Of a stretch of DNA of 64,000 bases, positions 14,706-38,780 are shown piece after piece. The translations under genes were made by a program, and so were the position numbers. The notes beneath the pieces were generated by a model. The model ran no database searches, had not been told where the DNA came from, and saw only the letters and a program-made list of their open reading frames with translations. Origin of the DNA: an uncultured archaeon (lineage in GTDB: Archaea; Asgardarchaeota; Heimdallarchaeia; Heimdallarchaeales; Heimdallarchaeaceae); the NCBI GenBank assembly GCA_964534625.1, contig CAZHRF010000013.1, positions 1,612-65,611 on the forward strand, in the 5' to 3' direction. Position 1 is the stretch's first letter, and each line of letters begins with the position of its first letter.

Positions 14706-16898
14706 TCAATTCAAATAGAAGTAACTTCCAGTGTTTCCATCATATTGTTCGGGTGTGTCTCCTCCAGAATACGGATAAGCGTTCAGAGCGTATGAAAAAA
14801 CATCCTCTAAAGCTACATTGGAAGAACCACCATAATGATCAATCCACGCATATTCTAGGAAGTAATGAGTCCATGCACCGTTTTCTGCTGAGGGGTAATC
14901 ATATCCATAGCCGTTATCGCTACATGTCGTTGTAAGATAGACTTTATCACTATTTGACATACCCATTAATTCTGGTCCAAATCCTCCAGAATAACAGTGA
15001 TCAATGAAAACAAAGATCTTTTCTGCAACAGATTGTTCAAGAATTGCTTGTAACTCCGTATCGTAAAGATTACCATCTTCACCACTTTCTCCAGAATTAC
15101 TATCCCAAGCACATAGGAAACTTGAACCATATCCGTCCCCGCTACCATGTCCCGATGTTGTGAAAGTTATCACATCATCTTCATCTGCAGTATTTACCAA
15201 CCAATTTAGGTAATATTTCATATTGTATTCGGTTGCTTTAGCATCGTATTTAGGATAATTAGTTGTATGACCATCACCTAGAACCTTAACATTGGAACTA
15301 CTCCAACCAAGATTATTAGTGAAATGATGATACCAATCGGTAGCATCTTCATCGCAGTAAGATAAATCGCTAATGGCTTTATAGTCAGAAATACCAACTA
15401 TTACAGCATAATAATTAGTGATACCATCGCCACCACTGCTACCACCGCCACCATCATCAGGTGTAACAGTAACAGTGATTGAATAAGAACCGCTACCAGA
15501 ATAAGCGAAACTACCTACATACCATGTACCAAATACAGCAGGGGGTTCAACAGTCATTGTTTCAGGACTAGTTGAATATCCAGAATACTGTGCATTGGCT
15601 ATCTCGTCGCTGGTTGACGATTCAGTTGACGTCCAACCACCAGTTCGAGCACCATTTGAATCCCAAACAGACAAATCATAATCTGCACCAGAAGGCATGC
15701 TCATTGATACTTCAATTAATGCCGTATCAGAAGGTACGTCAAACGCATGTTGGGTGCTTTGTTCTTTTTCAGCTAAAGAGTCTGAAAATGTATATGTGAC
15801 AGGTTCATCTGCAGTACTGGTATCAATAGTAAATGAAACGGAATCAGTAGCTGAATTACCCGCGTTATCATAAGCACGGACAGTAACACTATGACTTCCA
15901 TCAGCTAAACCAGTATAAGAATGACTTGTACTTGTGCCTTTGTTGACCCATGAACCAGAGTTCAATTGGATTTCATAATAGTCAATACCGCTATCTGCGT
16001 CAGATCCCGACCATTCAATAGTTACATCTCCGGTTGTAAAACTAGCACCATCAGAAGGTGAAGTTATGCTTATTGTTGGAGGTGTCGTGTCAGGGTCAGT
16101 CGTGCTTCCTTCATCGGGTGTAACAGTAACAGTGATTGAATAAGAACCGCTACCAGAATAAGCGAAACAACCTACATACCATGTACCAAATACAGCAGGG
16201 GGTTCAACAGTCATTGTCTCAGGACTAGTTGAATATCCAGAATACTGTGCATTGGCTATCTCGTCGCTGGTTGACGATTCAGTTGACGTCCAACCACCAG
16301 TTCGAGCACCATTTGAATCCCAAACAGACAAATCATAATCTGCACCAGAAGGCATGCTCATTGATACTTCAATTAATGCCGTATCAGAAGGTACGTCAAA
16401 CGCATGTTGGGTGCTTTGTTCTTTTTCAGCTAAAGAGTCTGAAAATGTATATGTGACAGGTTCATCGCTTCCCCCACCACTTCCACCTTCATACTCTATA
16501 TAATCGATGGCAAAACCCCATTCGGTGACAGAATAATCGGTTTGCAAACGGACACTAATTGTATCGCCATAACTCCATGCAGTCCATCCACCACTTGAAT
16601 ATGTACCAGTGAGTTTATGCAGTTGTGAACCACTATAATCATAGACATATAAGAAGTCATAATCTTTTTCTACTTCTATTTTACTGAAATGTACACGTAT
16701 TTGTGTAGCGTCAGTTTTTTGAATATGCCACGTATAGTCGAAATCATTTTCATACGGATGAGCACTTTCAAGAGAATAGGGTTCTTGAGTTGATCTTGCT
16801 ACCATTCCTTCTTTTGCATTGGCAAAAGGTACCATTGCTAGAAATAGTAGGACAATCGCTAGTCCTACAAATATTTTTTTGGTTTTCATATTAATCAA
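14706..16898 (-). CDS. Secreted multidomain protein: signal peptide, CUB-like domain, two duplicated beta-sandwich (PPC-like) domains flanking an Ig-like domain, and a C-terminal caspase-like (C14-type) domain
   Basis: Signal peptide KKIFVGLAIVLLFLAMVPFANA. The CUB-like segment runs from HPYENDFDYTWHIQ to VRLQTDYSVTEWGFAIDYIEY. The caspase-like block contains YAVIVGISDY, TTSGHGSG (catalytic His) and FIDHCYSGGFG (catalytic Cys). Confidence 0.7.
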   Translation of the reverse strand: MINMKTKKIFVGLAIVLLFLAMVPFANAKEGMVARSTQEPYSLESAHPYENDFDYTWHIQKTDATQIRVHFSKIEVEKDYDFLYVYDYSGSQLHKLTGTYSSGGWTAWSYGDTISVRLQTDYSVTEWGFAIDYIEYEGGSGGGSDEPVTYTFSDSLAEKEQSTQHAFDVPSDTALIEVSMSMPSGADYDLSVWDSNGARTGGWTSTESSTSDEIANAQYSGYSTSPETMTVEPPAVFGTWYVGCFAYSGSGSYSITVTVTPDEGSTTDPDTTPPTISITSPSDGASFTTGDVTIEWSGSDADSGIDYYEIQLNSGSWVNKGTSTSHSYTGLADGSHSVTVRAYDNAGNSATDSVSFTIDTSTADEPVTYTFSDSLAEKEQSTQHAFDVPSDTALIEVSMSMPSGADYDLSVWDSNGARTGGWTSTESSTSDEIANAQYSGYSTSPETMTVEPPAVFGTWYVGSFAYSGSGSYSITVTVTPDDGGGGSSGGDGITNYYAVIVGISDYKAISDLSYCDEDATDWYHHFTNNLGWSSSNVKVLGDGHTTNYPKYDAKATEYNMKYYLNWLVNTADEDDVITFTTSGHGSGDGYGSSFLCAWDSNSGESGEDGNLYDTELQAILEQSVAEKIFVFIDHCYSGGFGPELMGMSNSDKVYLTTTCSDNGYGYDYPSAENGAWTHYFLEYAWIDHYGGSSNVALEDVFSYALNAYPYSGGDTPEQYDGNTGSYFYLN
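15454..15809. repeat. Copy 2 of a 356-bp intragenic direct repeat (period 657 bp)
   Basis: Manual alignment to 16111-16466 shows 3 mismatches in 356 bp. It encodes DEPVTYTFSDSLAEKEQ...SITVTVTPD. Confidence 0.95.
16111..16466. repeat. Copy 1 of a 356-bp intragenic direct repeat
   Basis: See 15454-15809. The identical 75-aa shadow ORFs at 15572-15799 and 16229-16456 in the ORF track are a by-product of this repeat. Confidence 0.95.
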
Positions 16899-18864: not shown

Positions 18865-20073
18865 ATGGCAGTTTTTGATGCTGAAAAGAAACCATTAGGA
18901 ACGGTAATCTTTCTGGGCTATTTGTCACTATTAACAGTAACATCAACAGCTATATTGTATGCCAATGAGAAAGAGTTTGTGTTTGATAGATTTGATATAA
19001 GTTCGTTTGAGCTTTCACTTTATGACACGACACTATATGTGGCGTATTTCATAGCAGGAATAATAATAGCAATATTATCAGATAAATTGGCTAAAAGAAA
19101 ACTATTCGTGATAATTGGGAGTATGGGGGCATCGATAATGTTTACAGTAATGACAGTAACAGAAAATTATCTGATGTTGTTATTATTGCGTTTTATTCAA
19201 GGCTGTTTTTCGATAATGGTTTGGCAACTGCTGGTAACTATAGTATTGGATGTATCAGATAGTCAAACACGGGGAAGAAATATGGGGATATATGGTGTTC
19301 TTCTCGCTATAGGTATGGGTTTGGGGCCAATGATGGGCGGTTTTCTAGCAGAAAGAGGCGTATTTGTTCCTTATTATATGGCTACAGGATTAATGTTATC
19401 TGTTCTAATGTTGATTTTGCTTCTAAAAGAACCATTAACAATAAAACAAAGATCAACTGTTAAAGAAAGTTTGATGATCCTTGAAGAACACCCTAAGTTG
19501 ATACTACCATGTATTTTCAATTTCATAGATAGATTGCATATGGGATTTTTATTGTTCGCTCTTCCTTTGCTGATAGGATTGGATGAAGGATTGGGACTTG
19601 ATACAAAATATAGAGGGATAGCATTTGGGATATTTGCATTGCCATTTATATTGTTTCAATATCCATTTGGGGTGCTATCGGATAAAATAGGGCGGTACTC
19701 ACTATTAATAGCAGGTAGTTGCTGTTATGGAATAATATTAAGTATAATGGGGTATCATAGTACAAAATCTTTTGGCATATTGCTGATATTTTTAGTATTA
19801 TTGGGATTTTTTTCGAGTGTAACAGCACCAACATCAATGGCATTAGTGGGAGATAATATACATAGCCAAAAAAAACATGGCGCGGGAATGGGTGTATTTA
19901 CGCTATTTGGGAATATAGGAATAACTATTGGACCACCTATTGCAGGAATAGCACTGAGTTATGGATTTGGGGTAGCATTTTTAATAGCAGGATTAATAGA
20001 ATTGGGAAGTCTAGGTATAAATGTATTAATACTTCGAGTGAAGTTTAAAGAAAGATTATTGAGTATTTCTTGA
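18865..20073 (+). CDS. MFS transporter
   Basis: About 12 TM helices. MFS motif-A-like loops occur in both halves (LSDKLAKRKLFVIIG and LSDKIGRYSLLIAG). Confidence 0.8.
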   Translation: MAVFDAEKKPLGTVIFLGYLSLLTVTSTAILYANEKEFVFDRFDISSFELSLYDTTLYVAYFIAGIIIAILSDKLAKRKLFVIIGSMGASIMFTVMTVTENYLMLLLLRFIQGCFSIMVWQLLVTIVLDVSDSQTRGRNMGIYGVLLAIGMGLGPMMGGFLAERGVFVPYYMATGLMLSVLMLILLLKEPLTIKQRSTVKESLMILEEHPKLILPCIFNFIDRLHMGFLLFALPLLIGLDEGLGLDTKYRGIAFGIFALPFILFQYPFGVLSDKIGRYSLLIAGSCCYGIILSIMGYHSTKSFGILLIFLVLLGFFSSVTAPTSMALVGDNIHSQKKHGAGMGVFTLFGNIGITIGPPIAGIALSYGFGVAFLIAGLIELGSLGINVLILRVKFKERLLSIS

Positions 20074-20787
20074 ATTAGATTGAATATATTCAATAATTTC
20101 TCTTGTTTCAGTATTTTGAGCCAGTTCTATTATTGTTTGATTTTTTGCATTTCTGATTTTTAACACTGGTTCTGTTATTGGAAATAATTTTATTGCATCC
20201 ATATGGTGATTAATTATTGCATAGGCTAAAGGAATGTTTCCCCTATCGTCTTGAAGATGTGGATTTGCTCCTTTAGAGAGTAAATAGGAAATTGGTTGAG
20301 TGTAACCATTAAATGCAGCAAAATGTAATGGAGTACGGAATCCTTTATCCGTAATATTTACATTTGCACCATTTTCAAGGAGTAATCTGCAGCTTTCTGT
20401 TTGATTATCATATGCTGCTAAATGTAAAGGAGTTAAACCATCATTTGTTTGAGGTTCAATTGGAAGATTTTGACTAAATAAGTAAGTGACTATTTCGCAA
20501 TGACCATGGCAAGCTGCATAATGAAGAGGTACTTTATGATCTGCATTGGGGGTAGAAAGATTCCATCCTGCTTTTATTAAAACCCATGCAATCTCCGAAG
20601 ATGGAAGAAAGAGAGAGAGATGCAATGCAGTATTCCCAAGATCATCAGTACAAGTCTTATCTAATTGATTTTCCTGATCTTTATCTTGAAGAATTTGTAG
20701 AACTTTTACAATTTCGTTCTGTCTCACAAAATCCAAGAATTGGTGATTAATCTGGTTCTTCATATCCACAATTATTTGTAAATTCAT
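20056..20787 (-). CDS. Ankyrin-repeat protein
   Basis: At least four ANK repeats (GNTALHLS, VPLHYAACHGHCEIVTYL, GLTPLHLAAYDNQTESCRLLLENGANVN, RTPLHFAAFNGYTQPISYLLSKGANP). Confidence 0.85.
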   Translation of the reverse strand: MNLQIIVDMKNQINHQFLDFVRQNEIVKVLQILQDKDQENQLDKTCTDDLGNTALHLSLFLPSSEIAWVLIKAGWNLSTPNADHKVPLHYAACHGHCEIVTYLFSQNLPIEPQTNDGLTPLHLAAYDNQTESCRLLLENGANVNITDKGFRTPLHFAAFNGYTQPISYLLSKGANPHLQDDRGNIPLAYAIINHHMDAIKLFPITEPVLKIRNAKNQTIIELAQNTETREIIEYIQSNSRNTQ

Positions 20788-21871: not shown

Positions 21872-22579
21872 TAAGAGAGTAATACAGCGTAAATATAAAC
21901 ATCTTTTAAAAATAGAACAAAACTAATTAAAATGGCAGAAAAAATAAAAGATTATAGTATAGTTTTTTATCGAGAATAACTTGAGCTATAGCGCCCGCAA
22001 CTACAAGAAATATTGCAAGTATTAACAAAAATGAAACACTCGAAAGAGCTATATCTAAAATAAAAAACAATAATACGAACAATAAAAACAATACTAATCA
22101 AACAATGATCATATAATGAGGAATAGTTCGTGGGGGAAAAATATTAATTCTGATTTCTTCACTCATAAGAGCTCTGAAATTAGATGTATTATAAATGTAT
22201 CTAATGGAATAGTACTTCCAAATTAAGGAAAAATATGGTTAAAACATAGTAGATGATGTTATAGTCTTCTTTTTATTGAACTAGAAGAATATAACTGCTA
22301 TTTCGGAAGTACTAATAGATGTGTTTCAGTTAAACGCTTTTATCGACTTGGATGTGTTGAAACATAGGCTATTCATACTATCATCGTCTGGATTTCAATC
22401 CGCAATTTATCAGTCAAATCGGAAGTACCACTATTGATACTTGTTTACTGATACGAAAAGAAAAAGATGTTTGAAGATAACAAATATCAGTTATATATTT
22501 TAACAAGAAAAAATCCTAGGAAAAACTATTATATTTAAATATGGAAAACGTTTTTAAAATATAAGAAGGTGATTTATGT

Positions 22580-22981
22580 TTGTCTCACTTCACGAAAATT
22601 AAAACAGTACTTAAAGATAAAGAATGTCTATTAGAATCTCTCAAGAACCTAGATTATAAAGTGGAAGTTAACACATCAATAAAAGGCTATCAAGGTAAAA
22701 CAACACATGGTGATATAGTAATTAAAACTAACTCTAGTTATGATGTGGGATTTGTAAAAAATGCTACTGACACTTATGATATTGTAGCTGATTGGTATGG
22801 GGCTAGAAGAGCTATAGGTAAAAGCAAAAAAGTTTTCACCGAAGAAGTTCAAAAAGAATATACAATTAATAAGACGATAAAGACGGTAAGAAAAAAAGGT
22901 TACAGGATTCAATCAAGAAAAAATATAGCTGAAACTGAAGAAGTAAAATTGATTGTAGTAAAAAGAGGATGGCAAAGATGA
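22580..22981 (+). CDS. DUF1257 (Ycf35-like) protein, first gene of a six-gene operon
   Basis: TTG start 7 nt after SD aggtga (22567-22572). The MSHFTKIKTVLKDKECLLESLKNLDY N-terminus is typical of DUF1257. Confidence 0.6.
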   Translation: MSHFTKIKTVLKDKECLLESLKNLDYKVEVNTSIKGYQGKTTHGDIVIKTNSSYDVGFVKNATDTYDIVADWYGARRAIGKSKKVFTEEVQKEYTINKTIKTVRKKGYRIQSRKNIAETEEVKLIVVKRGWQR

Positions 22982-23184
22982 GTGTAAAGGATATTAGTTT
23001 AGAAATAACGATTGATAAAGAAGGAAACATCTCTTACAAGGTTATAGGTGTAAAAGGTAAGGATTGTGTTAAAGAAACAAAGTTTTTAGATGACGCATTG
23101 GGAGTAGTTGAAGAACGAAAATTTACTCGGGATTATTATCAACAAGGAGTGAAGAGTAATAGAAGAGTGACAACGAGGAGATAA
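22978..23184 (+). CDS. DUF2997-like small protein (preferred start 22978; the ORF track gives 22969)
   Basis: ATGA start/stop overlap with the upstream gene at 22978-22981, with SD agagga 8 nt upstream. The pattern ITIDKEGNISYKVIGVKGKDCVKETKFLDDALG matches the DUF2997 style. Confidence 0.55.
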   Translation: MSVKDISLEITIDKEGNISYKVIGVKGKDCVKETKFLDDALGVVEERKFTRDYYQQGVKSNRRVTTRR

Positions 23185-23186
23185 AG

Positions 23187-24719
23187 GTGAGAAAAGATAG
23201 TTCTGAATTAAGAGAAGAAATAAATATTTTAATCAAAGCAAGATATCCGATTCTTTATCTTGTGACACATGAAGAAGAAAGAGTAAGTCTGATGATTAAT
23301 AATATTGCGTCAGAAGCAGAAAAAAAAATAATTATCTGGACAACAACAGAGGGATTCAAAGATTTTAATGGTCAAGTAATAGATTCAGAAACAGTTGACC
23401 CTTTTGCGGCATTAAATTTTATAATAGATTACTCAAGACCTGCACTATTTCTTTTAAAGGACTTTCATCCATTTATGAAGGATGCCCTGATTATTAGAAG
23501 ATTGAGAGATCTAAAACCATATTTGAATAAATATAGAAAAACTTGCATAATTGTTTCTCCAATATTAATCATACCACCAGAATTAGAAAAAATGATAACA
23601 GTAGTAGATGTTGATTATCCAGAACTGGAGTTGCTGGGTGCGGTTCTAGAAGGGATAATTGAGCCACTAAAAGATAATCCAAAAGTGGATGTAACGCTAT
23701 CTGAAGAAGAGAGAGAACATGTGTTGAAATCAGCTTTGGGTTTAACAATAGAAGAAACAGAAAATGTTTTTGCAAAAAGTTTAGTTAAGGCAAAAAAATT
23801 CGACCCTAAAGTGATAATCAAAGAAAAAGAACATATTATTAGAAAAAGTGGTATCTTGGAATATTATCAATCAATAGAACAAATGGAAAATATAGGCGGC
23901 TTGGAAAATTTAAAACTGTGGTTGAAAAAAAGAACAAAAGGATTTACTGAGAAAGCTCAAAAATTTGGACTTCCTTTTCCTAAAGGATTAATGTTAATTG
24001 GTATAGCGGGATGTGGGAAAAGCCTTACAGCAAAGGCAGTTGCATCATTGTGGAATTTACCTTTGCTCAGATTGGATGTAGGGTCATTGTTTGGAGGTAT
24101 AGTGGGAGAATCAGAGAGAAATATCAGACAAGCAATTAAGTTAGCAGAATCGGTAAGTCCATCTATTTTGTGGATTGATGAAATAGAAAAAGGCTTTAGT
24201 GGGGTTCAATCAAGTAGCCAATTGGACGCAGGTACAACTGCAAGAGTTTTTGGCACTTTGATAACATGGTTACAAGAAAAAGAAGACCCTGTATTTGTCA
24301 TTGCCACAGCTAATAACATTAGTCAATTGCCACCAGAATTGCTTAGGAAAGGAAGATTCGATGAAATATTTTTCGTAGATTTACCTTCATCAAAAGAAAG
24401 AAAAGAAATCTTCAAGATTCACTTGAAAACAAGGGATAGAGATCCAAAAATATTTGATGTGCAAAAACTGGTGAGATTATCAAAAGGTCTATCAGGAGCT
24501 GAAATAGAACAAGCAATTATAGAGGGGATGTTTGAAGCATTTGCTGATGGGCGTGATGTGGAAACAACAGACATTATTGAAGCAATAGATAGTACTGTAC
24601 CATTATCGACATTGATGAAAAATGAAATAGCAGAACTGAGATCTTGGGCACAATCAAGAGCGAGACACGCATCAGTGGCAGAAGTAGAAGAAACAACAGA
24701 GTTGGACATAGAATTATAG
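23187..24719 (+). CDS. Classical-clade AAA+ ATPase, Ycf46-like, single AAA module with N-terminal domain
   Basis: GTG start 6 nt after SD gaggag (23175-23180). Walker [16 protein letters not shown], Walker [10 protein letters not shown], sensor-1/second region of homology [22 protein letters not shown]. Confidence 0.85.
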
Positions 24720-24748
24720 ACACATGTAAAAACGTAATTGTGTGAAAG

Positions 24749-25996
24749 TTGAGAGGAATGAATAGACAAGAACTACATTTTTGTCATATCTCCGATTCTC
24801 ACCTCGGAAATAGACAATATGGGTTAGTAGATAGATTTGATGACTTTGCAAAAGCATTAATGCATTCAGTAAATGAATGTATAAAAAGAAAACCAGATTT
24901 TGTTATCTATACTGGTGATCTGTTTGAAATATCAAAACCAAGAGCACCTGAATTGAGACAAGCTGTAAGAATAATAAAAAAATTACAGAAAGCAGAGATA
25001 CCATTGCTAATGTCTCAAGGGAATCATGACGTTTCGTATTCAAGATTTAGAAAATATGGCGGAGATATACTGTCTTTCTTAAGCGATTTAGATATCGGAG
25101 CAACATATATACAAGATGAATTATATACAATAGAAAAAGAGACAAAACACCCAGTAAAGATTCTTGCTGTAAACTATTATGGGAAGAGAACAAATTCAAT
25201 TTTAAGACAATTAATAGAAAAATACAAAGAAGAACTGGATGCCTTTAAAGAGCCAAAGATTCTCATGTTACATGCGTTTGTACAAGGGATGCCAGGAACA
25301 GTAGATGTGAAAACGGAAACAATAAACAAAGGAAATTTTGATTATGTTGGAGTGGGACATCTGCATGAAAGATGGGAAGATACTGAAAATAGGATTTACT
25401 GCCCAGGATCAACCGAACACACATCGGTGTCAGAATGGAACCAAGCAGAAAGAGGATTTTATGATGTCTACATGAAATTAATAAATGGCAAATGGAGACC
25501 ACAAGTAGAATATATTACTATACCAGTAAGAAAAAAACATCTAGTAGAACATGCATTTGAAAGTATTAGTGTCATAGATATTAGAGAAGAAGCGGAAATA
25601 ATATTAAATAAGAATGATATTGAAGATGCTGTAGTGATGTGTAAGTTCTATGGAGGATATGAAGGAAAAGAACATCCGTTCATAAATCTAGAGAAGTTTA
25701 GGTTAATTCCAAAAAAAGCTTTACATTGCATAATAAGAACACAATTTCTAGAAGCACATAAAGAAGAAGAAAGAAAACCAATTCTGACAGAGAGAGAAGC
25801 GTATGAAGGGATTTTAAAGCAATTATTTAAGATCCCAGAAACAGAAGTGGATGAATATATCTCGTTAATAGAAGAATCACTAAAAATAGTAGATGGGGAT
25901 TATACGATTTCAGAGCAAGAAGAAATTTTGCAAAAAAACTTTTCAACATTTGCAAAAAGAATGATAAAAGATAGTTCAGAGGGAGTTGTAGAATAA
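24749..25996 (+). CDS. mre11: Mre11/SbcD-type nuclease (the ATG at 24758 is an alternative start)
   Basis: Phosphoesterase motifs are present in order: HISDSHLG, TGDLFE, GNHD, MLHAFVQG, GVGHLHE. Confidence 0.85.
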   Translation: MRGMNRQELHFCHISDSHLGNRQYGLVDRFDDFAKALMHSVNECIKRKPDFVIYTGDLFEISKPRAPELRQAVRIIKKLQKAEIPLLMSQGNHDVSYSRFRKYGGDILSFLSDLDIGATYIQDELYTIEKETKHPVKILAVNYYGKRTNSILRQLIEKYKEELDAFKEPKILMLHAFVQGMPGTVDVKTETINKGNFDYVGVGHLHERWEDTENRIYCPGSTEHTSVSEWNQAERGFYDVYMKLINGKWRPQVEYITIPVRKKHLVEHAFESISVIDIREEAEIILNKNDIEDAVVMCKFYGGYEGKEHPFINLEKFRLIPKKALHCIIRTQFLEAHKEEERKPILTEREAYEGILKQLFKIPETEVDEYISLIEESLKIVDGDYTISEQEEILQKNFSTFAKRMIKDSSEGVVE

Positions 25997-28834
25997 ATGG
26001 TACTATTATTAAAGAAATTAATCCTAAAAAATTTTAAGACCTATGAAAGAGGAGAATTTAATTTCACAAAAGGGCATAATGTAGTTATAGGAGAAAATGG
26101 TGCAGGTAAATCTTCAATATTTGAAGCTATATCATATTGCCTATTTGGAAGTGTACCTGGAAAAACTAGCTATAGTTTGATACAACATGGAAAAAGAAAA
26201 ATGGAGTTAAGTTTAGATTTCAGTATAAACGATGAAAACTTGAGAGTAGAATGTTCAGCAACACAGAGTACATCTAATTTCATCTTGATGAAAGATGGAG
26301 AAATAATTGCAGAAAAAATAACTATAGTAAGAGAAATCATTCAACAAAAAATGGGATTGGGGAAACGAGTTTTCAATAATGCTATTTACATTCAACAAGG
26401 GCAAATAGCAGCAATAGCATCAGAAAGACCATCAGAAAGAAGAGATCTGTTTGATAGGATTTTAGGATACCATTTATACAGAAAGACAAATACAAGACTG
26501 AGAACGATAGAAAAACTAACAAGAGAAAAAAATGAGAGTACAAAAAAAAGACTACAAGATTATGAATATGATGTAAAAAAGAAGAGTGAAATAGAAAAAC
26601 AGTTAAAAGAGTTTAAAGAAAAAAAAGTTGAGCTAGAAAAGGAACTAAAAGCATTGTTGCCTGAATTAAAAGCAAAAGAAGAAAAATATAATAATATGAA
26701 TGAAAAACGAGAGAAAATAAACCAGATAGAAGAACGAATAAAAACACAAAAGATAGAAATAGAGAAGAGAGAAAAAGAAATAGATGAAATAAAATATGAA
26801 CTTCAAACAAGATTTGAAGAAGAGATAACGAGTACTAAACCAGAGAAAATTATAGAAATACAAGATAAACTAAAAAAACAACTTTTAGAATTGGAAAGAA
26901 ACTTAAAAGAAATAGAAAAAAAAGAAAATAGGGGAAGGGAAATTGAGAATAATATAAAATCTCTAGATAAACAAACAAGGAATATTGAAAATCAAATTAC
27001 AAAATTGTCTAAAAAAATAGAACAAGAAGAGATAGAATTAGAAAATATTGATCAAATTATTGCTGAGATTGATAAGAAAAAAGAAAAAAAAGAACAAACA
27101 AAACACAGAGAAACAGAACAGCTCCAAGAATTGATTGAAAAAGACAAACAACATAGTATTCTTACAGAAAACATAAAGCAAAAAAAAGTAGAACTAAAAA
27201 AATTGCAGAAAAAAGCAAAAAATATAATGAAAAAGTTGGAAGATAACTTTCCTGATTGGAAAACTATACTTGAAAGAGAATTGGAAAGAGACATTACCGA
27301 AGATAAAAAAGACTATTCTAAAAAATTGGTAAGGGAAAGAAATGAACTTACTAGAATAGAAAGAAGGATTTCTAGTTTAGAAACACTAATTGAAGAAGAA
27401 GAAAAGATAATAAAACTAGTAAAAGATAAAAAAGAAGAAGGAAAGTGTCCGCGGTGTGAATCACCGTTAACAGAAACACATGCAAAAAAAATAGTCAAAG
27501 AAAGCAAAGAAGTAATAAAGAAAAATGATGTGAAAAAGGAAACACTCGCAAAAAAAAGAGAGAATATAAAGAATAATATTAATGAATTGGAAAAAAGAAT
27601 AGTAATATTATATGAAGAAGAGAAGAAAACGATTTATCTGAAGAATTTGGTTGCTGAAAAAAAGAATACAAAGACCCAACTTAAAAAGGTTAAAGAAGAA
27701 ATAGTAAATAATCAAGAAGAACTAAAAAATGTAGGGGACACTGAAAAACAGCTAAATGAGAAAAGAGTAAAAATAAAAAAATTGGATGAGAATATTAGTG
27801 ATCTCAATGATGAATTAAAAAAAATAGAAAGTGTGAAAATATATGGAGCACAACTTTATTCTTTGAATGATCAACTTGACAAACTAAAAGAAGAAAGGAT
27901 TTCAAGCACTAAAGAACCAGAGTACAAAAAACTGGCTGAAAATACTAAAAAATTAACAAAAAAGAAGGAAGATCAGCGAATGTATATCGCAATTATTCCT
28001 AAAGTAGAGTCGCTGATAAAGAATATGCAAAGCCTAGAAGAGAATAGGAAAAAGAGGGAAGAAGAAACAGACGAATTGAAATGTTTAAAGCAAGCCTATG
28101 ATGAAAAACTTTTTTCTGAATACCAAGCTCAAGTCGACAAGATAAAAGCAAAAAAAGTAAAGTATGAAACCCAATTGAATAGCTATTCAAAAGATTTAAT
28201 CCCGGATAAGCAAAAACAGTATGAAGATGTATTAGAAAAAGAAAAAAAATTAATCGAAATTCAAAAAGAGTTGCAAGTGGATGAAAAAAAACTTTCAAGT
28301 ATTACGTTAGTGAGAGATTTCTTAATACAAACTATACCAATACTAAGAAGACAACATGTTAGGGCCATATCAGAATACTCAACAGAGATATTCTTACACC
28401 TGATCAATAGTGATGAATATAATGGGATAGAAATAACAGAAAATTATGACTTGAAAATAATTCAGTCGGGAAGAAAACATGATTTAATAATACTTTCAGG
28501 AGGCGAACAAGTAATTACTTGTTTGGCTATAAGACTGGCGATTGCAAAGTTATTAGCTAACCATGATATATTATTGCTGGATGAGCCAACTGTTATGTTA
28601 GATACACAAAGAAGAAGGGAATTGGTTGAAGTGTTTGATAAAACGAAACCCGTACAACAAACAATAATAGTTACACATGATTATGAGTTTGAAAGAATAG
28701 CAGATACAACATTTACAATTATAAAAAAAGCTGGAAAAGCAAACGTGCTAGCAGAAGAAATTGACAGTATAGTAATTAAACAGAAAGAATACAGAATGCT
28801 GACACAAGAAAGATTTGAGAAATTAGAAATATAG
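25997..28834 (+). CDS. rad50: Rad50/SbcC-type SMC-like ATPase with zinc hook
   Basis: Walker A GENGAGKSS, a long K/E-rich coiled coil with central hook CPRC (GKCPRCESPL), signature LSGGEQ, Walker B LLLDEPT, H-loop VTHD. Its ATG abuts the mre11 stop. Confidence 0.9.
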   Translation: MVLLLKKLILKNFKTYERGEFNFTKGHNVVIGENGAGKSSIFEAISYCLFGSVPGKTSYSLIQHGKRKMELSLDFSINDENLRVECSATQSTSNFILMKDGEIIAEKITIVREIIQQKMGLGKRVFNNAIYIQQGQIAAIASERPSERRDLFDRILGYHLYRKTNTRLRTIEKLTREKNESTKKRLQDYEYDVKKKSEIEKQLKEFKEKKVELEKELKALLPELKAKEEKYNNMNEKREKINQIEERIKTQKIEIEKREKEIDEIKYELQTRFEEEITSTKPEKIIEIQDKLKKQLLELERNLKEIEKKENRGREIENNIKSLDKQTRNIENQITKLSKKIEQEEIELENIDQIIAEIDKKKEKKEQTKHRETEQLQELIEKDKQHSILTENIKQKKVELKKLQKKAKNIMKKLEDNFPDWKTILERELERDITEDKKDYSKKLVRERNELTRIERRISSLETLIEEEEKIIKLVKDKKEEGKCPRCESPLTETHAKKIVKESKEVIKKNDVKKETLAKKRENIKNNINELEKRIVILYEEEKKTIYLKNLVAEKKNTKTQLKKVKEEIVNNQEELKNVGDTEKQLNEKRVKIKKLDENISDLNDELKKIESVKIYGAQLYSLNDQLDKLKEERISSTKEPEYKKLAENTKKLTKKKEDQRMYIAIIPKVESLIKNMQSLEENRKKREEETDELKCLKQAYDEKLFSEYQAQVDKIKAKKVKYETQLNSYSKDLIPDKQKQYEDVLEKEKKLIEIQKELQVDEKKLSSITLVRDFLIQTIPILRRQHVRAISEYSTEIFLHLINSDEYNGIEITENYDLKIIQSGRKHDLIILSGGEQVITCLAIRLAIAKLLANHDILLLDEPTVMLDTQRRRELVEVFDKTKPVQQTIIVTHDYEFERIADTTFTIIKKAGKANVLAEEIDSIVIKQKEYRMLTQERFEKLEI

Positions 28835-28846
28835 AAGGAGAAAAAA

Positions 28847-29419
28847 ATGAGTGTAAAACTGGCAAAAATAATAAAAAACTCAGAATCAAATGGACCAGGC
28901 ATACATTATACAATATGGTTTCAAGGGTGTAATTTAAACTGTCCAGAATGCTTTAATCCCCATACACATAATAGAAAGGGGGGTTTCAGAAAAAGAATAA
29001 ATCAGATAGTAAAGGAGATTAAACACGAAAAAGAAGTAAATAAAATAAAAGGAGTTACATTAACGGGAGGAGAACCCTTACAACAACTAGAGGGTGTTTT
29101 TAAGTTGGTAAAAGAAATAAAAACAAAAGTATCAGATATTGGTATAATTATCCTTACTGGATACGAACCTGAAGAATTGGAAAAAATGGAAATGTTCAAA
29201 CGAATAAGTACATATGTGGATGTGTTTATTGCGGGTAGGTATAGAAAAGAAAGGAAAATACAAAAGGGAATAAGAGGATCAGATAATAAAAAATACCTTT
29301 TTCTTACAGAATACTATGCAAGAAGAGATTTTGATAAAGTACCACAGCTAGAAGTAATAGTGGGAAAAACAGGTTCGATAGTGCTATCGGGAATAGAACC
29401 TGAAATAATGAATGATTAA
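28847..29419 (+). CDS. NrdG-like radical-SAM activase (anaerobic RNR-activating-enzyme family), no NrdD partner in the window
   Basis: SD aaggag (28835-28840) lies 6 nt before the ATG. ESNGPGIHYTIWFQGCNLNCPECFNPHTH (CxxxCxxC cluster) and GVTLTGGEPL are present. Confidence 0.7.
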   Translation: MSVKLAKIIKNSESNGPGIHYTIWFQGCNLNCPECFNPHTHNRKGGFRKRINQIVKEIKHEKEVNKIKGVTLTGGEPLQQLEGVFKLVKEIKTKVSDIGIIILTGYEPEELEKMEMFKRISTYVDVFIAGRYRKERKIQKGIRGSDNKKYLFLTEYYARRDFDKVPQLEVIVGKTGSIVLSGIEPEIMND

Positions 29420-32799: not shown

Positions 32800-33240
32800 T
32801 TAAATCACCTCATCTATCCAATCTAATGGATTGGAAACAAGAATATTAAATTTTTCAATATGTTTTTTATACAAATATATAATATCTCTATCTGTCGTTA
32901 AAAATACATTAGCTCTTGCTTCTATAGCACACGAAATATGTAAAGCATCAAAATTTTTTACTCCAAATGAATGAAATATCTTTGCCTTTTGAATAATTGC
33001 ATCATTAAGATGGATTTTCTCGTCAAAAAACCTACTTAATGTTTTAACTTTCCTTTTTCGATAAAAATCAGGTATCTTGTCTATTTCAAAATCAATTACA
33101 TCACTACTAATTAATACCCAATCGGTAGTTTCTATCTTTTCAAGGATGATTTTAATAGATTCTGTTTCAAGATGAATCCTGTTATCTAATTGGTTATCGA
33201 AAGGACGATTAAGACAACAAACATCCATATAAATACGCAT
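32800..33240 (-). CDS. PIN-domain ribonuclease (VapC-like toxin)
   Basis: The acidic PIN residues are in the expected spacing: YMDVCCLNRPFD, then E in HLETES, then FDALHISCA, then FLTTDRD. Confidence 0.75.
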   Translation of the reverse strand: MRIYMDVCCLNRPFDNQLDNRIHLETESIKIILEKIETTDWVLISSDVIDFEIDKIPDFYRKRKVKTLSRFFDEKIHLNDAIIQKAKIFHSFGVKNFDALHISCAIEARANVFLTTDRDIIYLYKKHIEKFNILVSNPLDWIDEVI

Positions 33241-35962: not shown

Positions 35963-37660
35963 TTAGGTAAATATCTCCCTAACATTGCATGTTTTGTTAT
36001 AATGATTACAATATGCATCTATAATTTTCTTAATTAGGGCGATTAAAATATAATTCCAATATCTTACAGAATCTTTGTATTCAACAAATATGGATCTTGC
36101 TCTTTTATATTCATCAATCGTTCTATATTCTGAATTTTCATTGCGTATCGCTTCTTTTATATCATAATCTTTTTTTGTATAAAAGGATTTTACGACTTCT
36201 GCTATGCTTTTAATAGCTTTGGCAAATAGTATTGATTCAATCCATGAAATAGTGTTTCCTCTTATTTCCACATTCATCTTATTTATGTCAAATGCATCTT
36301 CATATAGTTCATCTTTATCAAATATGTCTTTGGTGTATGATCTTGCAATATTTTGTTTTCCTTGAAAAGCCATACTTAATTGTCCAAATTCCTTCATAGT
36401 CAGAATACGATAATTTTTTGGCAGACCTTTAAATTTTTCCACAGATCCAGACCTTGACTTTGTAGAATCCCAACCTCCTCTTTTATGTTCATAAAATATT
36501 GATATCGAATGATCCCCAAGCATGTTTTTAATTGGAAGATGTATGTACTCATCAGCCGATCTCATATCTAGTTTGTTAATAGGGTTTTGTGTGTTTGTAG
36601 CTTGGGCAATTTTCTGTTTCTGTTTTTCATCTTCTATAGGGATGATTTTTGCCCAAACGTTTATTCCCTCTTGTTTAATATCATTTAAAGCCATTTTGTT
36701 TTCTCTCATAAAATCTCTTACAGCATCGTGAATTGCCCAACAAGTTTGACATCCATTAACTATTTGTGGTTTTACTAATATAAATTCGCCATTAAATACT
36801 TCTTGCTCTTCAATAATAACTAGGTCACAAATGATGTTCAATCCATTGTTCAGTGTTTCTAGTTCGTAATTAATGTCACCATTAGCTTTATCTAATAATT
36901 CTTTAACTTCATCTTTAATCATTTTTCCAATTTTCGACCCTCTACTAGGTGGTAATCTGAATCTTAAATTTTTGAGAAATAGTGCATCATTATGGGACTT
37001 AAGTAAATCATATATTTGAGTGACATTAATTGGACTTAATACCAGTTTTATTTCCTCTTCATTGTTTTTTCTAAGTATCAGCGCCTCTTTTTCCGATTTT
37101 ATCTTAATCTCATCTGGTGGTTGTAAAAAATATGATTCTTGATACCTTATGATTTCTATTATATCCTCTTTATCGTAAATTTCGACATCATTTTGTTTTG
37201 CATTTAATATTGCATCATCATTTAATCTTCCAGTAACACATACGACTTTACGAATAAGTTTTAGGTCTTTTAACCTTTTATAATCGCCCCTTAAATCTCT
37301 AAAATCATTGTTGAGAACATCTTCATCACTCTCTAGCATTCTTATTCCATTTAGGAGTTGATCTATAGGTTCATTGTCAAATGTTGTGTCTGACGAGAGA
37401 TCAGAGTATTTGCATTGTACTAGTAAAATTGTGTCTTTTTCATCATCGATTACTCCAATATCTATTCCATGATCACCTGTTTGACCAAAAAAAATCCTTT
37501 CATTAGGGTCAATGCCAAATATGTTTTTTGTGGCCCATTTTTCAAAAATAAATCCTTTTTTCTCATTTGATAGGATTTCTTCATTGGGATAATACTCTTT
37601 ACCTAAATTATTAATAGATTCTTCAAAATCTTGTATTATTTGTTCATTAAAATTACTCAT
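35963..37660 (-). CDS. AIPR-family abortive-infection protein with N-terminal PD-(D/E)XK (Mrr-like) nuclease domain
   Basis: The N-terminus has GDHGIDIGVIDDEKDTILLVQCKY (D...QxK nuclease core). The central PQIVNGCQT is the AIPR hallmark. Confidence 0.7.
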   Translation of the reverse strand: MSNFNEQIIQDFEESINNLGKEYYPNEEILSNEKKGFIFEKWATKNIFGIDPNERIFFGQTGDHGIDIGVIDDEKDTILLVQCKYSDLSSDTTFDNEPIDQLLNGIRMLESDEDVLNNDFRDLRGDYKRLKDLKLIRKVVCVTGRLNDDAILNAKQNDVEIYDKEDIIEIIRYQESYFLQPPDEIKIKSEKEALILRKNNEEEIKLVLSPINVTQIYDLLKSHNDALFLKNLRFRLPPSRGSKIGKMIKDEVKELLDKANGDINYELETLNNGLNIICDLVIIEEQEVFNGEFILVKPQIVNGCQTCWAIHDAVRDFMRENKMALNDIKQEGINVWAKIIPIEDEKQKQKIAQATNTQNPINKLDMRSADEYIHLPIKNMLGDHSISIFYEHKRGGWDSTKSRSGSVEKFKGLPKNYRILTMKEFGQLSMAFQGKQNIARSYTKDIFDKDELYEDAFDINKMNVEIRGNTISWIESILFAKAIKSIAEVVKSFYTKKDYDIKEAIRNENSEYRTIDEYKRARSIFVEYKDSVRYWNYILIALIKKIIDAYCNHYNKTCNVREIFT

Positions 37661-37865: not shown

Positions 37866-38780
37866 TTAATTTTTCTTGTTTTCTTTTCTAAATATCAAGC
37901 AATACTGGTGATGTCTATTACCAACCCAAGCATTGTAAATTCCTAAAGGTAGTAAACTTTTATCATCTTGGCACCAGATTTTCTCATCTTTAAGTACCCA
38001 TTTACATTTATCAGTTCTAGATAGTGAGATTGCTGTATCATAAGCTAGGGGATAGACTTCACCATTATAAAAAACATTATTAGTTATAACAACCAAGTAT
38101 CCTTTATTTTTCATAACTTTCCATACTTGATCAAATATTTTCTTTTGTTCTTCTATAAACTCAAGATAATCATCAATATTTCCAATGTCATCCTCATTAT
38201 CTTCTGAGTAAATTGTATCAAGATTCTTCTCTTTTCTTTCTTTTTGTCTGATGTGGTTTCTTTTTAGTTGATTCCAATAAGGTGGACTGGTAATACAGAA
38301 ATCAACTTCTTCGATACCTTCTTTCTCAAGTAATGATACTAAATTCCGGGAATCTCCTGTGATTATTTTGTGTTCTGAAGTCATAATTTTTTCTTCAGAT
38401 ACTGAAACTTTATTCAAAATTTGTGATAATTCAGGTTGATCTTTTAGTCTTTCTTTAGCAATTTTGGAGTATTTTTTGTTAATCTCTATACCTACCCCAT
38501 TACGAATTAATTCTCTGCAAGCTACTAATGTGCTACCTGTGCCTAGAAAAGGATCTATTACCCACTCTCCTTTTTTAGTAAAAAAAGCTATAAATTCACT
38601 TACAAGGGATTCGGGATAACTAGCGGGATGCATTACCTTTTTATCCCCTCTCGATTTTGGTCTGTGAATAAACCATGATTTTGTAAATTTAATCCATTCC
38701 TTGCCTGAAAGTTCGTTTAATCGGTTTTCTGGTTTTTTTCTTTTGTTTTTTGTCAAGTAAATCAAGCCTTTTTCTGTCAA
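37866..38780 (-). CDS. SAM-dependent DNA methyltransferase (N6A/N4C type)
   Basis: Motif I is VIDPFLGTGSTLVA and catalytic motif IV is CITSPPYWN. The size is typical of a type II methyltransferase. Confidence 0.8.
   Translation of the reverse strand: MTEKGLIYLTKNKRKKPENRLNELSGKEWIKFTKSWFIHRPKSRGDKKVMHPASYPESLVSEFIAFFTKKGEWVIDPFLGTGSTLVACRELIRNGVGIEINKKYSKIAKERLKDQPELSQILNKVSVSEEKIMTSEHKIITGDSRNLVSLLEKEGIEEVDFCITSPPYWNQLKRNHIRQKERKEKNLDTIYSEDNEDDIGNIDDYLEFIEEQKKIFDQVWKVMKNKGYLVVITNNVFYNGEVYPLAYDTAISLSRTDKCKWVLKDEKIWCQDDKSLLPLGIYNAWVGNRHHQYCLIFRKENKKN

Follow-up and report, generated by a model that had tools for sequence, protein, structure and literature searches.

An mre11-rad50 pair nested within a four-gene AAA+/radical-SAM module in an Asgard lineage

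We found that in an Asgard lineage the DNA-break repair genes mre11 and rad50 are nested in a gene module that bacteria and phages have as well, at the place where related archaea have herA and nurA. The whole stretch of DNA analysed here, 64 kb in length, is called the window, and within it a block of six tightly spaced genes on the + strand (22580-29419) encodes DUF1257, DUF2997 and Ycf46-type AAA+ proteins, Mre11, Rad50 and an NrdG/PflA-like radical-SAM (rSAM) protein. This block consists of two units, namely the four-gene module and the lineage's own mre11-rad50 set, the latter lying between the AAA+ and rSAM genes and at the nurA-herA site. No prior description of Mre11-Rad50 within an AAA+/rSAM module was found in the searchable literature. 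An earlier reading made from the sequence only had proposed the six genes and their families, and all of its open reading frames and domain assignments could be confirmed, as follows:

22567..22572, + strand: SD-like aggtga, read from the sequence, 7 nt 5' of the TTG start of the DUF1257 gene
22580..22981, + strand: DUF1257/Ycf35-like small protein, 133 aa, TTG start; PF06868 E 2e-19, phrog_20456 E 5e-21
22978..23184, + strand: DUF2997 small protein, 68 aa (71 aa from the alternative start 22969); PF11211 E 8e-15, phrog_23133 E 5e-12
23187..24719, + strand: Ycf46-type AAA+ ATPase, 510 aa, GTG start; PF00004 AAA E 3.5e-30
24758..25996, + strand: Mre11 nuclease, 412 aa from ATG 24758 (415 aa from TTG 24749); PF00149 Metallophos
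25997..28834, + strand: Rad50 ATPase, 945 aa; NCBIfam PRK03918 over residues 4-918, 236 bits; Pfam AAA_23 and SMC_N
28847..29419, + strand: NrdG/PflA-like radical-SAM activase, 190 aa; PF13353 (Fer4_12) E 3e-30 and PF04055 (Radical_SAM)

The genes were packed just as the sequence-only reading had described, with an ATGA overlap between the DUF1257 and DUF2997 genes (22978-22981), a 2-nt gap between the TAA of the latter (23182-84) and the GTG of the AAA+ gene (23187), direct abutment of the mre11 TAA (25994-96) on the rad50 ATG (25997), and 12 nt between the rad50 TAG (28832-34) and the rSAM ATG (28847). Its three SD motifs were also present, these being aggtga (22567-22572), gaggag (23175-23180) and, within the 12-nt gap, aaggag (28835-28840), and an A/T-rich, TATA-like stretch just 5' of the first of them, tttaaaatataa, is a putative promoter. 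Two of the starts that it had found less clear were indeed ambiguous, with 22969 or 22978 for DUF2997 and TTG 24749 or ATG 24758 for Mre11; gene callers had chosen 22978 and 24758 on a public contig identical to the window. The Mre11-Rad50 pair is thus placed inside the module, with neighbouring genes overlapping or lying 0-38 nt apart, so that its expression is almost certainly shared with that of the flanking genes.

The same six-gene order was found at loci L088 (identities to the window of 58% for Mre11, 44% for Rad50 and 71% for AAA+) and L257 (53% for Mre11), with different flanking genes in each of these and in the window. Five of the six genes were conserved in L006, a Hodarchaeota MAG, and in L003, where the rSAM gene is missing, Mre11 is 45% identical and the block lies among ribosomal genes on a 964-kb contig. 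The notion of a non-canonical operon, syntenic in related genomes, was upheld. Among Mre11 relatives at 45-100% identity, all 10 that could be paired, the window's own included, matched an AAA+ homologue on a contig of equal size. The arrangement exceeds chance, since separate contigs whose flanks are unrelated share it.

The closest outgroup Mre11-Rad50 pairs adjoin NurA and/or HerA genes, as nurA-herA-mre11-rad50 (L004, L174), as herA-mre11-rad50 (L005) or with divergent nurA/herA (L007), and the trio of DUF1257, DUF2997 and AAA+ genes hence holds the HerA/NurA position. Neighbour-joining (NJ) analysis placed the trio-linked Mre11 proteins in a monophyletic group, sister to NurA-HerA-linked Asgard Mre11, with a branching order that paralleled the AAA+ tree for loci common to both and with L003 as basal. 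Judged from this topology, the positional replacement of nurA-herA is real and old. Searching the whole 64-kb window by tblastn, with HerA and NurA of Asgard archaea as queries, gave no match to either protein, and neither was found less than 10 kb from the block in L003, L088 or L257.

The Mre11-Rad50 pair of this lineage was inherited vertically. In Mre11 the phosphoesterase motifs are intact (DSH aa 13-15, GDL 53-55, GNHD 88-91, GHLH 200-203), its top NCBIfam matches are archaeal Mre11 models, with scores far under their equivalog cut-offs, and archaeal Mre11 in the PDB is matched at E 4e-19. Rad50 carries Walker A (aa 32-39), the signature LSGGE (833-837), Walker B (859-864) and the H-loop THD (893-895), together with a long coiled coil and the zinc hook CPRC (aa 484-487, nt 27446-27457). 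The locus thereby resembles the canonical archaeal herA-mre11-rad50-nurA operon in its adjacent and translationally coupled mre11-rad50 pair, in that the zinc hook and the motifs of both nuclease and ABC ATPase are intact, in having an oligomeric ATPase gene immediately 5', and in that its Mre11 has the Asgard Mre11 of operons of this kind as sister group. It differs in lacking NurA and HerA, the FtsK/HerA-type ATPase, and in having instead an AAA+ of the classical clade, the small DUF1257 and DUF2997 proteins, and a downstream rSAM enzyme.

In AAA+-anchored surveys of bacteria, phages and Asgard archaea, DUF1257, DUF2997, AAA+ and rSAM genes formed a recurrent same-strand module of variable order. 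The metagenome survey comprised 27 mostly bacterial loci in which AAA+ was flanked on either side by 3 kb or more; DUF1257 and/or DUF2997 were found in 15 of these and rSAM in nine, and partner genes shared the AAA+ strand in 68/69 cases. A small partner accompanied rSAM at all nine rSAM-bearing loci, eight of which had all three partners and none of which had Mre11. AAA+ and rSAM occurred together on 12 of 80 viral contigs. It was clear that the rSAM gene, which the sequence-only reading had regarded as an orphan, is no such thing, as it recurs beside AAA+, DUF1257 and DUF2997 in bacteria, phages and Asgard relatives without nearby Mre11-Rad50. Mre11/Rad50 beside the module was seen in this Asgard clade alone, being absent at every bacterial and phage locus surveyed, and two further Asgard loci (L172, L090) had DUF1257-DUF2997-AAA-rSAM without Mre11-Rad50.

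The AAA+ protein is 55-58% identical over its full length to bacterial proteins named SpoVK, Ycf46 or Vps4 in the sources, which suggests horizontal acquisition, the gene being probably of bacterial or phage origin. Residues ~233-510 form an active, classical-clade AAA tier (Walker A aa 272-279, pore loop GIVGE 304-308, Walker B WIDE 329-332, GRFD arginines 389-392). The top NCBIfam and PDB matches were PAN, CDC48, FtsH and VCP-like ATPase, with the D2 domains of VCP-like ATPase, p97 and Cdc48 as closest solved relatives (E 1e-49 to 1e-45). Residues 1-~232 constitute a degenerate, AAA-like N-tier without a Walker A motif, the model of which (pLDDT 91) matched AAA+ modules of RFC, Pex1/6, Rpt and FtsH in Foldseek (E ~1e-7).

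In the DUF1257 protein the N-terminal M-S-H-F is invariant and (R/K)GYxG is conserved at a hairpin tip (aa 36-39). Its AF2 model (pLDDT 91.5) found no PDB fold at better than E 0.23, nor did the structure search match a nuclease fold, whether RNase H-like, PD-(D/E)xK or another. The DUF2997 protein has a GxxGxxC motif (aa 24-30) invariant in an alignment of 26 homologues. The two are fused naturally in L169, and in L145, L159 and L162 the DUF2997 gene shares 4-8 nt with the rSAM gene. Cyanobacterial and plastid Ycf46 (AAA+) and Ycf35 (DUF1257) belong to the same families (PF06868 with invariant N-terminal MSH, PF11211, full-length Ycf46-type AAA+), whereas the window genes are archaeal and share an operon with Mre11-Rad50 and the rSAM activase. 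The Ycf46, Ycf35 and DUF2997 families are still called uncharacterised in function (PMC13060386; PMC4284462). For cyanobacteria, which have a DUF2997-ycf35-fed7 cluster, a ferredoxin is reported as partner, and the phenotypes described relate to stress, circadian timing and CO2 (PMC4284462; 10.1101/2025.07.21.665879); for ycf46 these comprise induction in severe stress and the stringent response, KaiC interaction and carbon-concentration phenotypes, not DNA repair (10.1101/2025.07.21.665879).

The rSAM protein resembles NrdG and PFL-activating enzyme in sequence and shares with the glycyl-radical-enzyme activases NrdG and PflA the small Fer4_12/Radical_SAM build, an N-terminal GPGI (aa 16-19) and a CX3CX2C cluster motif (aa 28-35), with matches to phrog_626 (E 4e-36) and to PFL-activating enzyme in the PDB (E 1e-8). 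It differs from them in that its conserved neighbours are AAA+ and the two small proteins, with no glycyl-radical enzyme nearby.

As our preferred reading, which we give about an even chance, the module would form an accessory machine that remodels proteins under radical-SAM control and is coupled to DNA-end processing. The AAA+ protein would be a hexameric protein unfoldase or remodeller rather than a DNA motor, and the DUF1257 and DUF2997 proteins, to judge from their natural fusion, its adaptor/substrate pair. The rSAM enzyme would activate or modify one of these through radical chemistry, DUF2997 being the likelier target as translational coupling often links its gene with that of rSAM. 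Co-expressed with Mre11-Rad50 in this Asgard clade, the machine would work with that complex at broken DNA ends without performing HerA-NurA-type resection, and might clear protein-DNA complexes, recycle them or control Mre11-Rad50 itself. Such a role is modelled on Cdc48/p97, which acts in eukaryotic double-strand-break repair. By that functional analogy the window AAA+ is likewise a two-tier classical AAA protein, here genetically linked to Mre11-Rad50, although only one of its tiers is active, it lacks the Cdc48 N-domain and the locus encodes no ubiquitin system. The aliphatic rather than aromatic pore-loop position (GIVGE), the missing rSAM gene in L003 and the cyanobacterial ycf46 phenotypes, which lie outside DNA repair, weigh against the preferred reading, and since the module lacks adjacent Mre11-Rad50 at all bacterial and phage loci and in two Asgard relatives, the link may not be obligatory.

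The sequence-only reading had suggested that the trio substitutes for HerA-NurA, and this held with regard to position: the trio lies exactly at the site of nurA-herA in sister Asgard lineages, neither HerA nor NurA was found in the window or near the block in L003, L088 or L257, and the linkage to mre11-rad50 is old. As a mechanism, with AAA+ as end-resection motor and one small protein as nuclease, it appears unlikely. Characterised classical-clade AAA members thread proteins, while HerA is an FtsK/HerA-type DNA translocase, and the ATPase belongs to the classical clade with PAN, CDC48, FtsH and Vps4-type matches. Its modelled N-tier is a degenerate AAA module rather than a DNA-binding or nuclease domain, the confident DUF1257 model matched no nuclease fold, and the module is widespread without any Mre11-Rad50. 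Another reading is a neutral juxtaposition, in which a mobile module derived from bacteria or phages met mre11-rad50 once and the layout was inherited without functional coupling; the module is self-sufficient in other lineages, the bacterial likeness of AAA+ fits such a transfer, and the loci lacking either Mre11-Rad50 (L172, L090) or rSAM (L003) show that the parts can come apart. We nevertheless regard pure juxtaposition as rather improbable, because order and tight spacing persist down to identities of 45% for Mre11 and 34% for Rad50 with all flanking genes differing, and persistence of gene order through such divergence usually means co-function. The nesting with almost certainly shared expression argues against it as well, as do independent DNA-repair or replication neighbours of AAA+, with or without its partners, in other lineages. 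Upstream and on the same strand in L090 were genes for a LigD 3'-phosphoesterase and an SSB-like OB-fold protein, along with a weak match to LigD PrimPol; the trio of Rhizobium phage L338C lies ~4 kb upstream of helicase and Pol I genes; five bacterial modules contain a ComEA-like HhH protein; and on large viral contigs a solo AAA+ lies within a replication module (metallophosphoesterase, DnaC-like, DnaB, DnaG, Pol III alpha).

The six genes could alternatively be an anti-phage or anti-plasmid defence system, with an SbcCD/Lamassu-like nuclease and an IetA-like AAA+. The patchy, phage-borne distribution of the module, a defence-island-like stretch at about 33 to 60 kb of the window, and PADLOC matches of the Rad50-like protein to LmuB (E 1e-33) and of AAA+ to IetA (E 2e-25) would agree with this, and the block does share an Mre11/SbcD-type phosphoesterase and an SMC-like ABC ATPase with SbcCD, Lamassu LmuB and IetAS. 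Those matches reflect generic SMC/ABC and AAA similarity, however, and gave this idea, also raised in the sequence-only reading, no specific support. DUF1257, DUF2997 and Mre11 matched no defence model in PADLOC, and LmuA- or IetS-type effector and partner genes are missing from the block. The best matches are to archaeal Mre11 and Rad50 rather than SbcCD, and a vertically inherited Mre11, sister to the canonical herA/nurA-linked Asgard Mre11, along with a full-length, zinc-hook Rad50, has the look of a housekeeping pair. The block, moreover, is surrounded by core genes, ribosomal ones included, in L003 and by metabolic genes in L088 and L257, and we consider a defence role improbable. We are equally doubtful that the rSAM gene is an ordinary nrdG, placed here incidentally and serving an anaerobic ribonucleotide reductase from another locus. 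Its best family matches are to NrdG (TIGR02491 E 2e-31, phrog_626), but the score of 108.8 bits falls short of the 126.1-bit equivalog cut-off, and scanning the rSAM-bearing loci gave no open reading frame with a glycyl-radical enzyme fingerprint near any module. Where the flanks suffice, rSAM joined AAA+ only when DUF1257 or DUF2997 was also present, and this association is kept across bacteria, phages and archaea although the gene order changes.

At 22580–29419, in a window with a G+C content of about 30%, six plus-strand ORFs follow one another with overlaps or gaps of 0–38 nt, and direct reading of the sequence together with family scans recovered the six packed genes, their Shine-Dalgarno-like motifs and the junction coordinates exactly as the sequence-only reading had placed them. 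In order along the plus strand, the genes encode:

DUF1257 (Ycf35-like) protein: PF06868, E 2e-19, 70 bits against a gathering cut-off of 22.2
DUF2997 protein: PF11211, E 8e-15, 54.8 bits against a gathering cut-off of 24.1
AAA ATPase of 510 aa, identified in the family scans
Mre11-type phosphoesterase: PF00149
Rad50 of 945 aa: NCBIfam PRK03918 aligned over residues 4–918
Fer4_12/Radical_SAM protein (rSAM) of 190 aa: PF13353, E 3e-30, with NrdG as nearest family

All catalytic motifs were complete, including those of Mre11, the Walker motifs and CPRC zinc hook of Rad50, Walker A, Walker B and the arginine fingers of the AAA ATPase and the CX3CX2C motif of the rSAM protein. A locus identical to this block was found in Logan public contigs and, among the matches listed, the named nearest relatives were Asgard MAGs carrying the labels Hodarchaeota, Borrarchaeum, Thorarchaeota and Promethearchaeota.

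Both Mre11 and Rad50 belong to their families as judged by motifs and architecture. The Mre11 protein carries phosphoesterase motifs I–V, with DxH, GDL, GNHD and GHxH present, and matched archaeal Mre11 in the PDB at E 4e-19, while the Rad50 protein has a split ABC ATPase head and a long coiled coil with a CxxC zinc hook within its 945 aa (Walker A at aa 32–39, CPRC at 484–487, LSGGE at 833–837 and Walker B at 859–864). Scores fell below the NCBIfam equivalog cut-offs (Mre11_Sulfo, 100.8 bits versus 500; PRK03918, 235.8 versus 700) and, since these models are lineage-specific, this shows divergence rather than non-membership.

In the canonical archaeal herA-mre11-rad50-nurA arrangement, HerA (a DUF87 ATPase of the FtsK/HerA type) and NurA adjoin mre11-rad50, whereas the block in the window has neither. 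Using tblastn with two Asgard HerA queries and one Asgard NurA query, we obtained zero matches over all 64 kb of the window, in agreement with the absence claimed from sequence alone, and likewise zero matches in the related Asgard loci L003, L006 and L088; the gene table of a further relative, L257, also lacked HerA. With both defining neighbours searched for and absent, the operon is not of the canonical type. The next-closest Mre11 proteins (28–39% identity) came from MAGs of Helarchaeota, Heimdallarchaeota, Sifarchaeum and relatives. Two such Asgard loci, L004 (5068–21019) and L174 (7205–17141), have the order nurA-herA-mre11-rad50 and after it an AAA_5 gene of the MoxR type, with a CobT_C-type gene also following in L004, the corresponding L174 gene being cut off and unannotated. 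These AAA_5-type additions indicate that the ATPase modules added to Asgard Mre11-Rad50 operons are of more than one kind. Upstream in L004 are also HNH and metallo-beta-lactamase/RMMBL nuclease genes, and nurA-herA occurs a second time downstream. Of two other Asgard loci, L005 has herA-mre11-rad50, and L007 has divergent nurA and herA genes adjoining mre11-rad50. The trio of DUF1257, DUF2997 and AAA+ genes thus sits in the HerA/NurA position of the sister Asgard operons.

Conservation of the block was assessed over about ten Asgard contigs, from which the phyletic pattern is drawn. As the sequence-only reading required of related genomes, synteny was recovered: all six genes occur in the same order in L088 (identities of 71% for AAA+, 58% for Mre11, 44% for Rad50 and 52% for rSAM) and again in L257 (Mre11, 53%), and five are syntenic in L003, a contig of 964 kb from an assembly labelled Borrarchaeum, with rSAM missing (Mre11, 45%; Rad50, 34%), as well as in L006, a Hodarchaeota MAG contig that ends after the first five genes. 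The flanking genes were different at every recurrence, those of L003 being ribosomal and other core genes. For all ten Mre11 proteins that could be paired (45–100% identity, including that of the window) we inferred, from contigs of equal length, co-location with an AAA+ gene of the archaeal clade, and verified it directly for three pairs; scanning a genome collection with the Mre11 alignment gave at least two Asgard loci. In neighbour-joining trees calculated without support values, the trio-linked Mre11 proteins formed one clade, whose sister was the NurA-HerA-linked Asgard group, the Heimdall group branching outside both, and the archaeal AAA+ clade showed the same branching for loci present in both trees, with L003 basal. 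This agreement indicates that mre11-rad50 is the lineage's own and that its link to the AAA+ gene dates to the base of the clade.

With the radical-SAM activase counted as a member, the trio is in fact a set of four genes. The activase gene had been described as an orphan, a description that does not hold, because rSAM regularly accompanies the AAA+, DUF1257 and DUF2997 genes in Asgard relatives, bacteria and phages. Two Asgard relatives (L090/L091, AAA+ 63% identical; L172, DUF1257 58% identical) have DUF1257-DUF2997-AAA-rSAM with Mre11-Rad50 neither inside nor nearby. We surveyed other loci with AAA+ as the anchor and searched their flanks with profiles built for this analysis. Among the matches listed, 79 mostly bacterial metagenome loci had DUF1257 within 4 kb in 30 cases, DUF2997 in 24 and rSAM in 15, and none contained Mre11. 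Of the listed loci whose AAA+ gene had 3 kb or more of flank in both directions (n = 27), 15 had a small partner, nine had rSAM and 12 had a solo AAA+ gene; a small partner was found at all nine rSAM loci and all three partners at eight of them. In the loci listed, partner genes lay on the AAA+ strand in 68 of 69 cases. The orders seen included rSAM-AAA-DUF1257-DUF2997, AAA-rSAM-DUF1257-DUF2997 and AAA-DUF1257-HhH-x-DUF2997-rSAM, and such constant gene content with variable order argues for a functional module. The DUF2997 and rSAM genes overlapped by 4–8 nt in several loci, and a natural fusion was found in L169 (1735–2313), where a single ORF of 192 aa matched both the DUF1257 and the DUF2997 profile, suggesting that the two small proteins may act as one unit. 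The AAA+ gene was also solo in L086 and L087, Mb-size contigs with the closest bacterial AAA+ homologues, showing that the gene has a solo form as well as the module form. Five bacterial rSAM-type modules (L141, L145, L155, L159 and L161; e.g. L141 897–1565) enclosed a gene for a protein of about 222 aa with a ComEA-like helix-hairpin-helix (HhH; PF12836, E 5e-10), and a DUF3150 protein recurred in three bacterial module loci (L100, L113 and L170; e.g. L100 7304–8371).

We assigned the AAA+ protein to the Ycf46 type on the basis of 55–58% identity over 95–100% of its length to bacterial proteins that carry the JGI name SpoVK/Ycf46/Vps4, together with intact Walker A and B motifs and arginine fingers. 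Its C-terminal half is a classical-clade AAA domain, the nearest solved structures being a VCP-like ATPase, p97 and Cdc48 D2 (E 1e-49 to 1e-45). The N-terminal 232 residues (model pLDDT 91) lack a Walker A motif and matched AAA+ modules of RFC, Pex1/6, Rpt and FtsH in Foldseek (E about 1e-7, TM 0.5–0.6), which argues for a two-tier AAA protein with an inactive first tier. A separate DNA-binding or substrate domain in this region was ruled out, the model giving a degenerate AAA module. Characterized members of the classical clade remodel proteins, whereas HerA is a DNA translocase of the FtsK/HerA type.

For DUF1257, residues M1, S2, H3 and F4 were invariant across 39 homologues, and an (R/K)GYxG motif at a hairpin tip is a further invariant feature; an N-terminal MSH motif has been independently described for Ycf35 (PMC13060386). 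A NurA-like nuclease was rejected for this protein, the AF2 model (pLDDT 91.5) having no nuclease fold and a best Foldseek match in the PDB at E 0.23 with TM ≤0.37; a sequence search of the PDB gave nothing below E 0.09. One DUF1257 homologue, P0207, is named by JGI as a predicted DNA-binding WGR domain protein, an annotation that we dropped because DUF1257 was the sole Pfam match even with E values up to 10 allowed. In DUF2997, GxxGxxC was invariant across 26 homologues. The rSAM protein, with GPGI at aa 16–19 and CNLNCPEC at aa 28–35, was most similar to glycyl-radical activases, with the PFL-activating enzyme as PDB match. It shares the cluster motif and N-terminus of NrdG and PflA, but scored below the equivalog cut-off of NrdG (TIGR02491, E 2e-31, 108.8 versus 126.1 bits) and has no adjacent glycyl-radical enzyme. 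The roughly 7 kb flanking the block on each side contain no gene for NrdD, PFL or a similar enzyme, and searching all ORFs of 166 AAA+-anchored loci, including 12–40 kb of the window, we found no glycyl-radical fingerprint (R[IVTLM][CSATG]GY) beside rSAM-bearing modules; a nearby glycyl-radical enzyme was hence discarded as partner of the rSAM protein.

The four-gene set is also common in phages. PHROG counterparts exist for each of the three trio families, the AAA+ protein matching phrog_8638 over its full length (E 1e-148), and AAA+ is encoded in 57 GenBank phage records. Within 4 kb of the AAA+ gene, 80 IMG/VR loci had DUF1257 in 23 cases, DUF2997 in 21 and rSAM in 10. Phage AAA+ genes lie in or near replication modules, both with the small-protein genes and alone. 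In Rhizobium phage L338C the AAA+ gene, one unassigned gene, DUF1257 and DUF2997 are consecutive, about 4 kb upstream of a replicative helicase and Pol I, and in a family of large viral contigs (L193, L195, L203, L204, L217 and L244; IMG/VR, up to 479 kb) a solo Ycf46-like AAA+ gene lies within the replication module. In those contigs the gene was seen between that of a 330-aa metallophosphoesterase, which resembles Mre11 weakly, and genes for DnaC/IstB-like, DnaB, DnaG zinc ribbon and Pol III alpha proteins. A full-length homologue with 32% identity over 96–98% of the query is encoded by Mycobacterium phage Corndog (gp96, L175) and in 33 other Mycobacterium phage records; profile searches detected neither DUF1257 nor DUF2997 near this type of AAA-ATPase. 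Corndog is a Ku-encoding phage exploiting host NHEJ. The archaeal AAA+ clade is monophyletic with 55–58% identity to bacterial proteins, suggesting that its gene was acquired from bacteria or from their viruses.

The block is, taken together, a four-gene module with the lineage's own mre11-rad50 inside it, in an old linkage. As a mechanism, we propose that the AAA+ protein would be a protein unfoldase having DUF1257 and DUF2997 as its adaptor/substrate pair, and that the rSAM protein would place a radical or another modification on one of the small proteins, DUF2997 being the favoured target because of the coupling of its gene with rSAM. In the trio-linked Asgard clade this machine may work with Mre11-Rad50 at DNA ends, and we consider functional coupling of the two to be about as probable as its absence. 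Contexts independent of Mre11-Rad50 give circumstantial support for a DNA-related role, namely the LigD- and SSB-like genes upstream of the module on the same strand in Asgard-like L090 (the same genes being found in L091), the HhH protein in five bacterial modules and the replication contexts in phages. Against this stands the little that is known of cyanobacterial Ycf46, which concerns its induction by stress and the stringent response, its interaction with KaiC and phenotypes related to CO2 (10.1101/2025.07.21.665879). In most hosts, moreover, the module evidently does its work without Mre11-Rad50. A neutral juxtaposition of the module and mre11-rad50, favoured by the independent occurrence of the module elsewhere and disfavoured by their shared gene order in relatives, is a possibility that we find rather doubtful.

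Two further explanations had been offered from sequence alone and both lost ground. That the trio mechanistically replaces the HerA motor and NurA nuclease would fit its position in the operon, but the AAA+ protein belongs to the classical clade, whose characterized members remodel proteins, and nothing like a nuclease fold was seen in the DUF1257 model, so that we regard such replacement as improbable. An anti-phage or anti-plasmid defence system of the Lamassu or IetAS type was addressed using PADLOC for the six block proteins and Pfam for the neighbouring genes; similarity to LmuB and IetA was found but was generic, and models of the LmuA or LmuC effectors or the IetS protease were absent among the six proteins, making a defence function quite unlikely. 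Returning to a module coupled with Mre11-Rad50, its significance lies in the variation of resection partners between the domains of life around a universal Mre11-Rad50, the accepted archaeal partners being HerA and NurA. A conserved Asgard clade, from a group including a MAG labelled Hodarchaeota, whose mre11-rad50 is embedded in another ATPase module, one that probably stems from bacteria or phages, would represent a third kind of partner set.

To our knowledge, the function of Ycf46 and Ycf35, encoded by conserved cyanobacterial and plastid genes, has been unsettled for decades. The Ycf46, Ycf35 and DUF2997 families are still termed uncharacterized (PMC4284462, PMC13060386, 10.1101/2025.07.21.665879). 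The new leads are rSAM as a regular fourth member and the recurrence of the gene set beside DNA-end and replication genes, which together make the question of Ycf46/Ycf35 function testable. We tentatively suggest, as a bold reading with the chances rather against it, that DUF1257/Ycf35, DUF2997, Ycf46 AAA+ and rSAM could constitute an unrecognized, widespread machine of bacteria, phages, plastid-bearing lineages and Asgard archaea, in which radical chemistry on a small protein and an unfoldase would act on protein–DNA complexes at DNA ends or forks, and which in one Asgard lineage near Hodarchaeota would have become a dedicated partner in the Mre11-Rad50 operon, replacing HerA-NurA. If true, this would assign a DNA-maintenance function to the long-orphan ycf35 and ycf46. 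A literature search that left most subscription journals outside, and in which the link of Ycf46 to radical-SAM enzymes was judged partly on titles and abstracts, gave no paper tying DUF1257, DUF2997 or Ycf46 to such enzymes or to Mre11-Rad50; the Mre11-Rad50 operon with its accessory module may be new, and may also have been described earlier.

In L090 the region directly upstream of the module (5173–9430) codes for a protein of 504 aa that matches LigD PrimPol weakly, for a LigD_N 3'-phosphoesterase (E 1.5e-22) and for three proteins without assignment; genes for an SSB-like OB-fold protein and for Cdc6 are located further upstream. According to a 2026 review, archaeal NHEJ is known from Methanocella alone (PMC12993045); against that record, a set of NHEJ-like genes in an Asgard archaeon would deserve attention.

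Scans of the window for tRNA genes and Rfam families returned nothing, and a scan for sigma-70 promoters and terminators, which leaves out archaeal promoter types, gave counts at or below the shuffle expectation. Ahead of the operon lie about 700 nt without long ORFs (21872–22579), in which the motif TCGGAAGTAC occurs twice at a distance of 116 nt (22303–22312 and 22419–22428), its 8-nt core GGAAGTAC having one further, inverted copy at 22212–22219; GTT[AG]AAACATAG is also repeated there with a spacing of 118 nt. The two units of about 118 nt share just about 47% identity overall, and the repeated motifs may be regulator-binding sites. Further upstream, two minus-strand genes encode a protein of 730 aa that combines CUB and bacterial Ig-like domains (14706–16898) and an ankyrin-repeat protein of 243 aa (20056–20787), CUB and ankyrin being domain types commoner in eukaryotes. 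Downstream, the region at 32800–59781, mostly on the minus strand, resembles a defence island:

32800–33240, PIN domain, weak and below the Pfam cut-off
35963–37660, AIPR abortive-infection protein
37866–38780, N6/N4 DNA methylase
40078–41256 and 41323–42492, tandem pair of TGT-like paralogues
42579–43925, PLD/NgoFVII-type nuclease
44524–47481, STAND-like NTPase, with matches below Pfam cut-offs
49346–54091, unannotated ORF of 1581 aa
55675–59781, protein with Schlafen AlbA_2, NPHP3-type NTPase and TPR domains

The paired TGT genes, with a nuclease gene as neighbour, suggest DNA modification by a DpdA-like 7-deazaguanine system.
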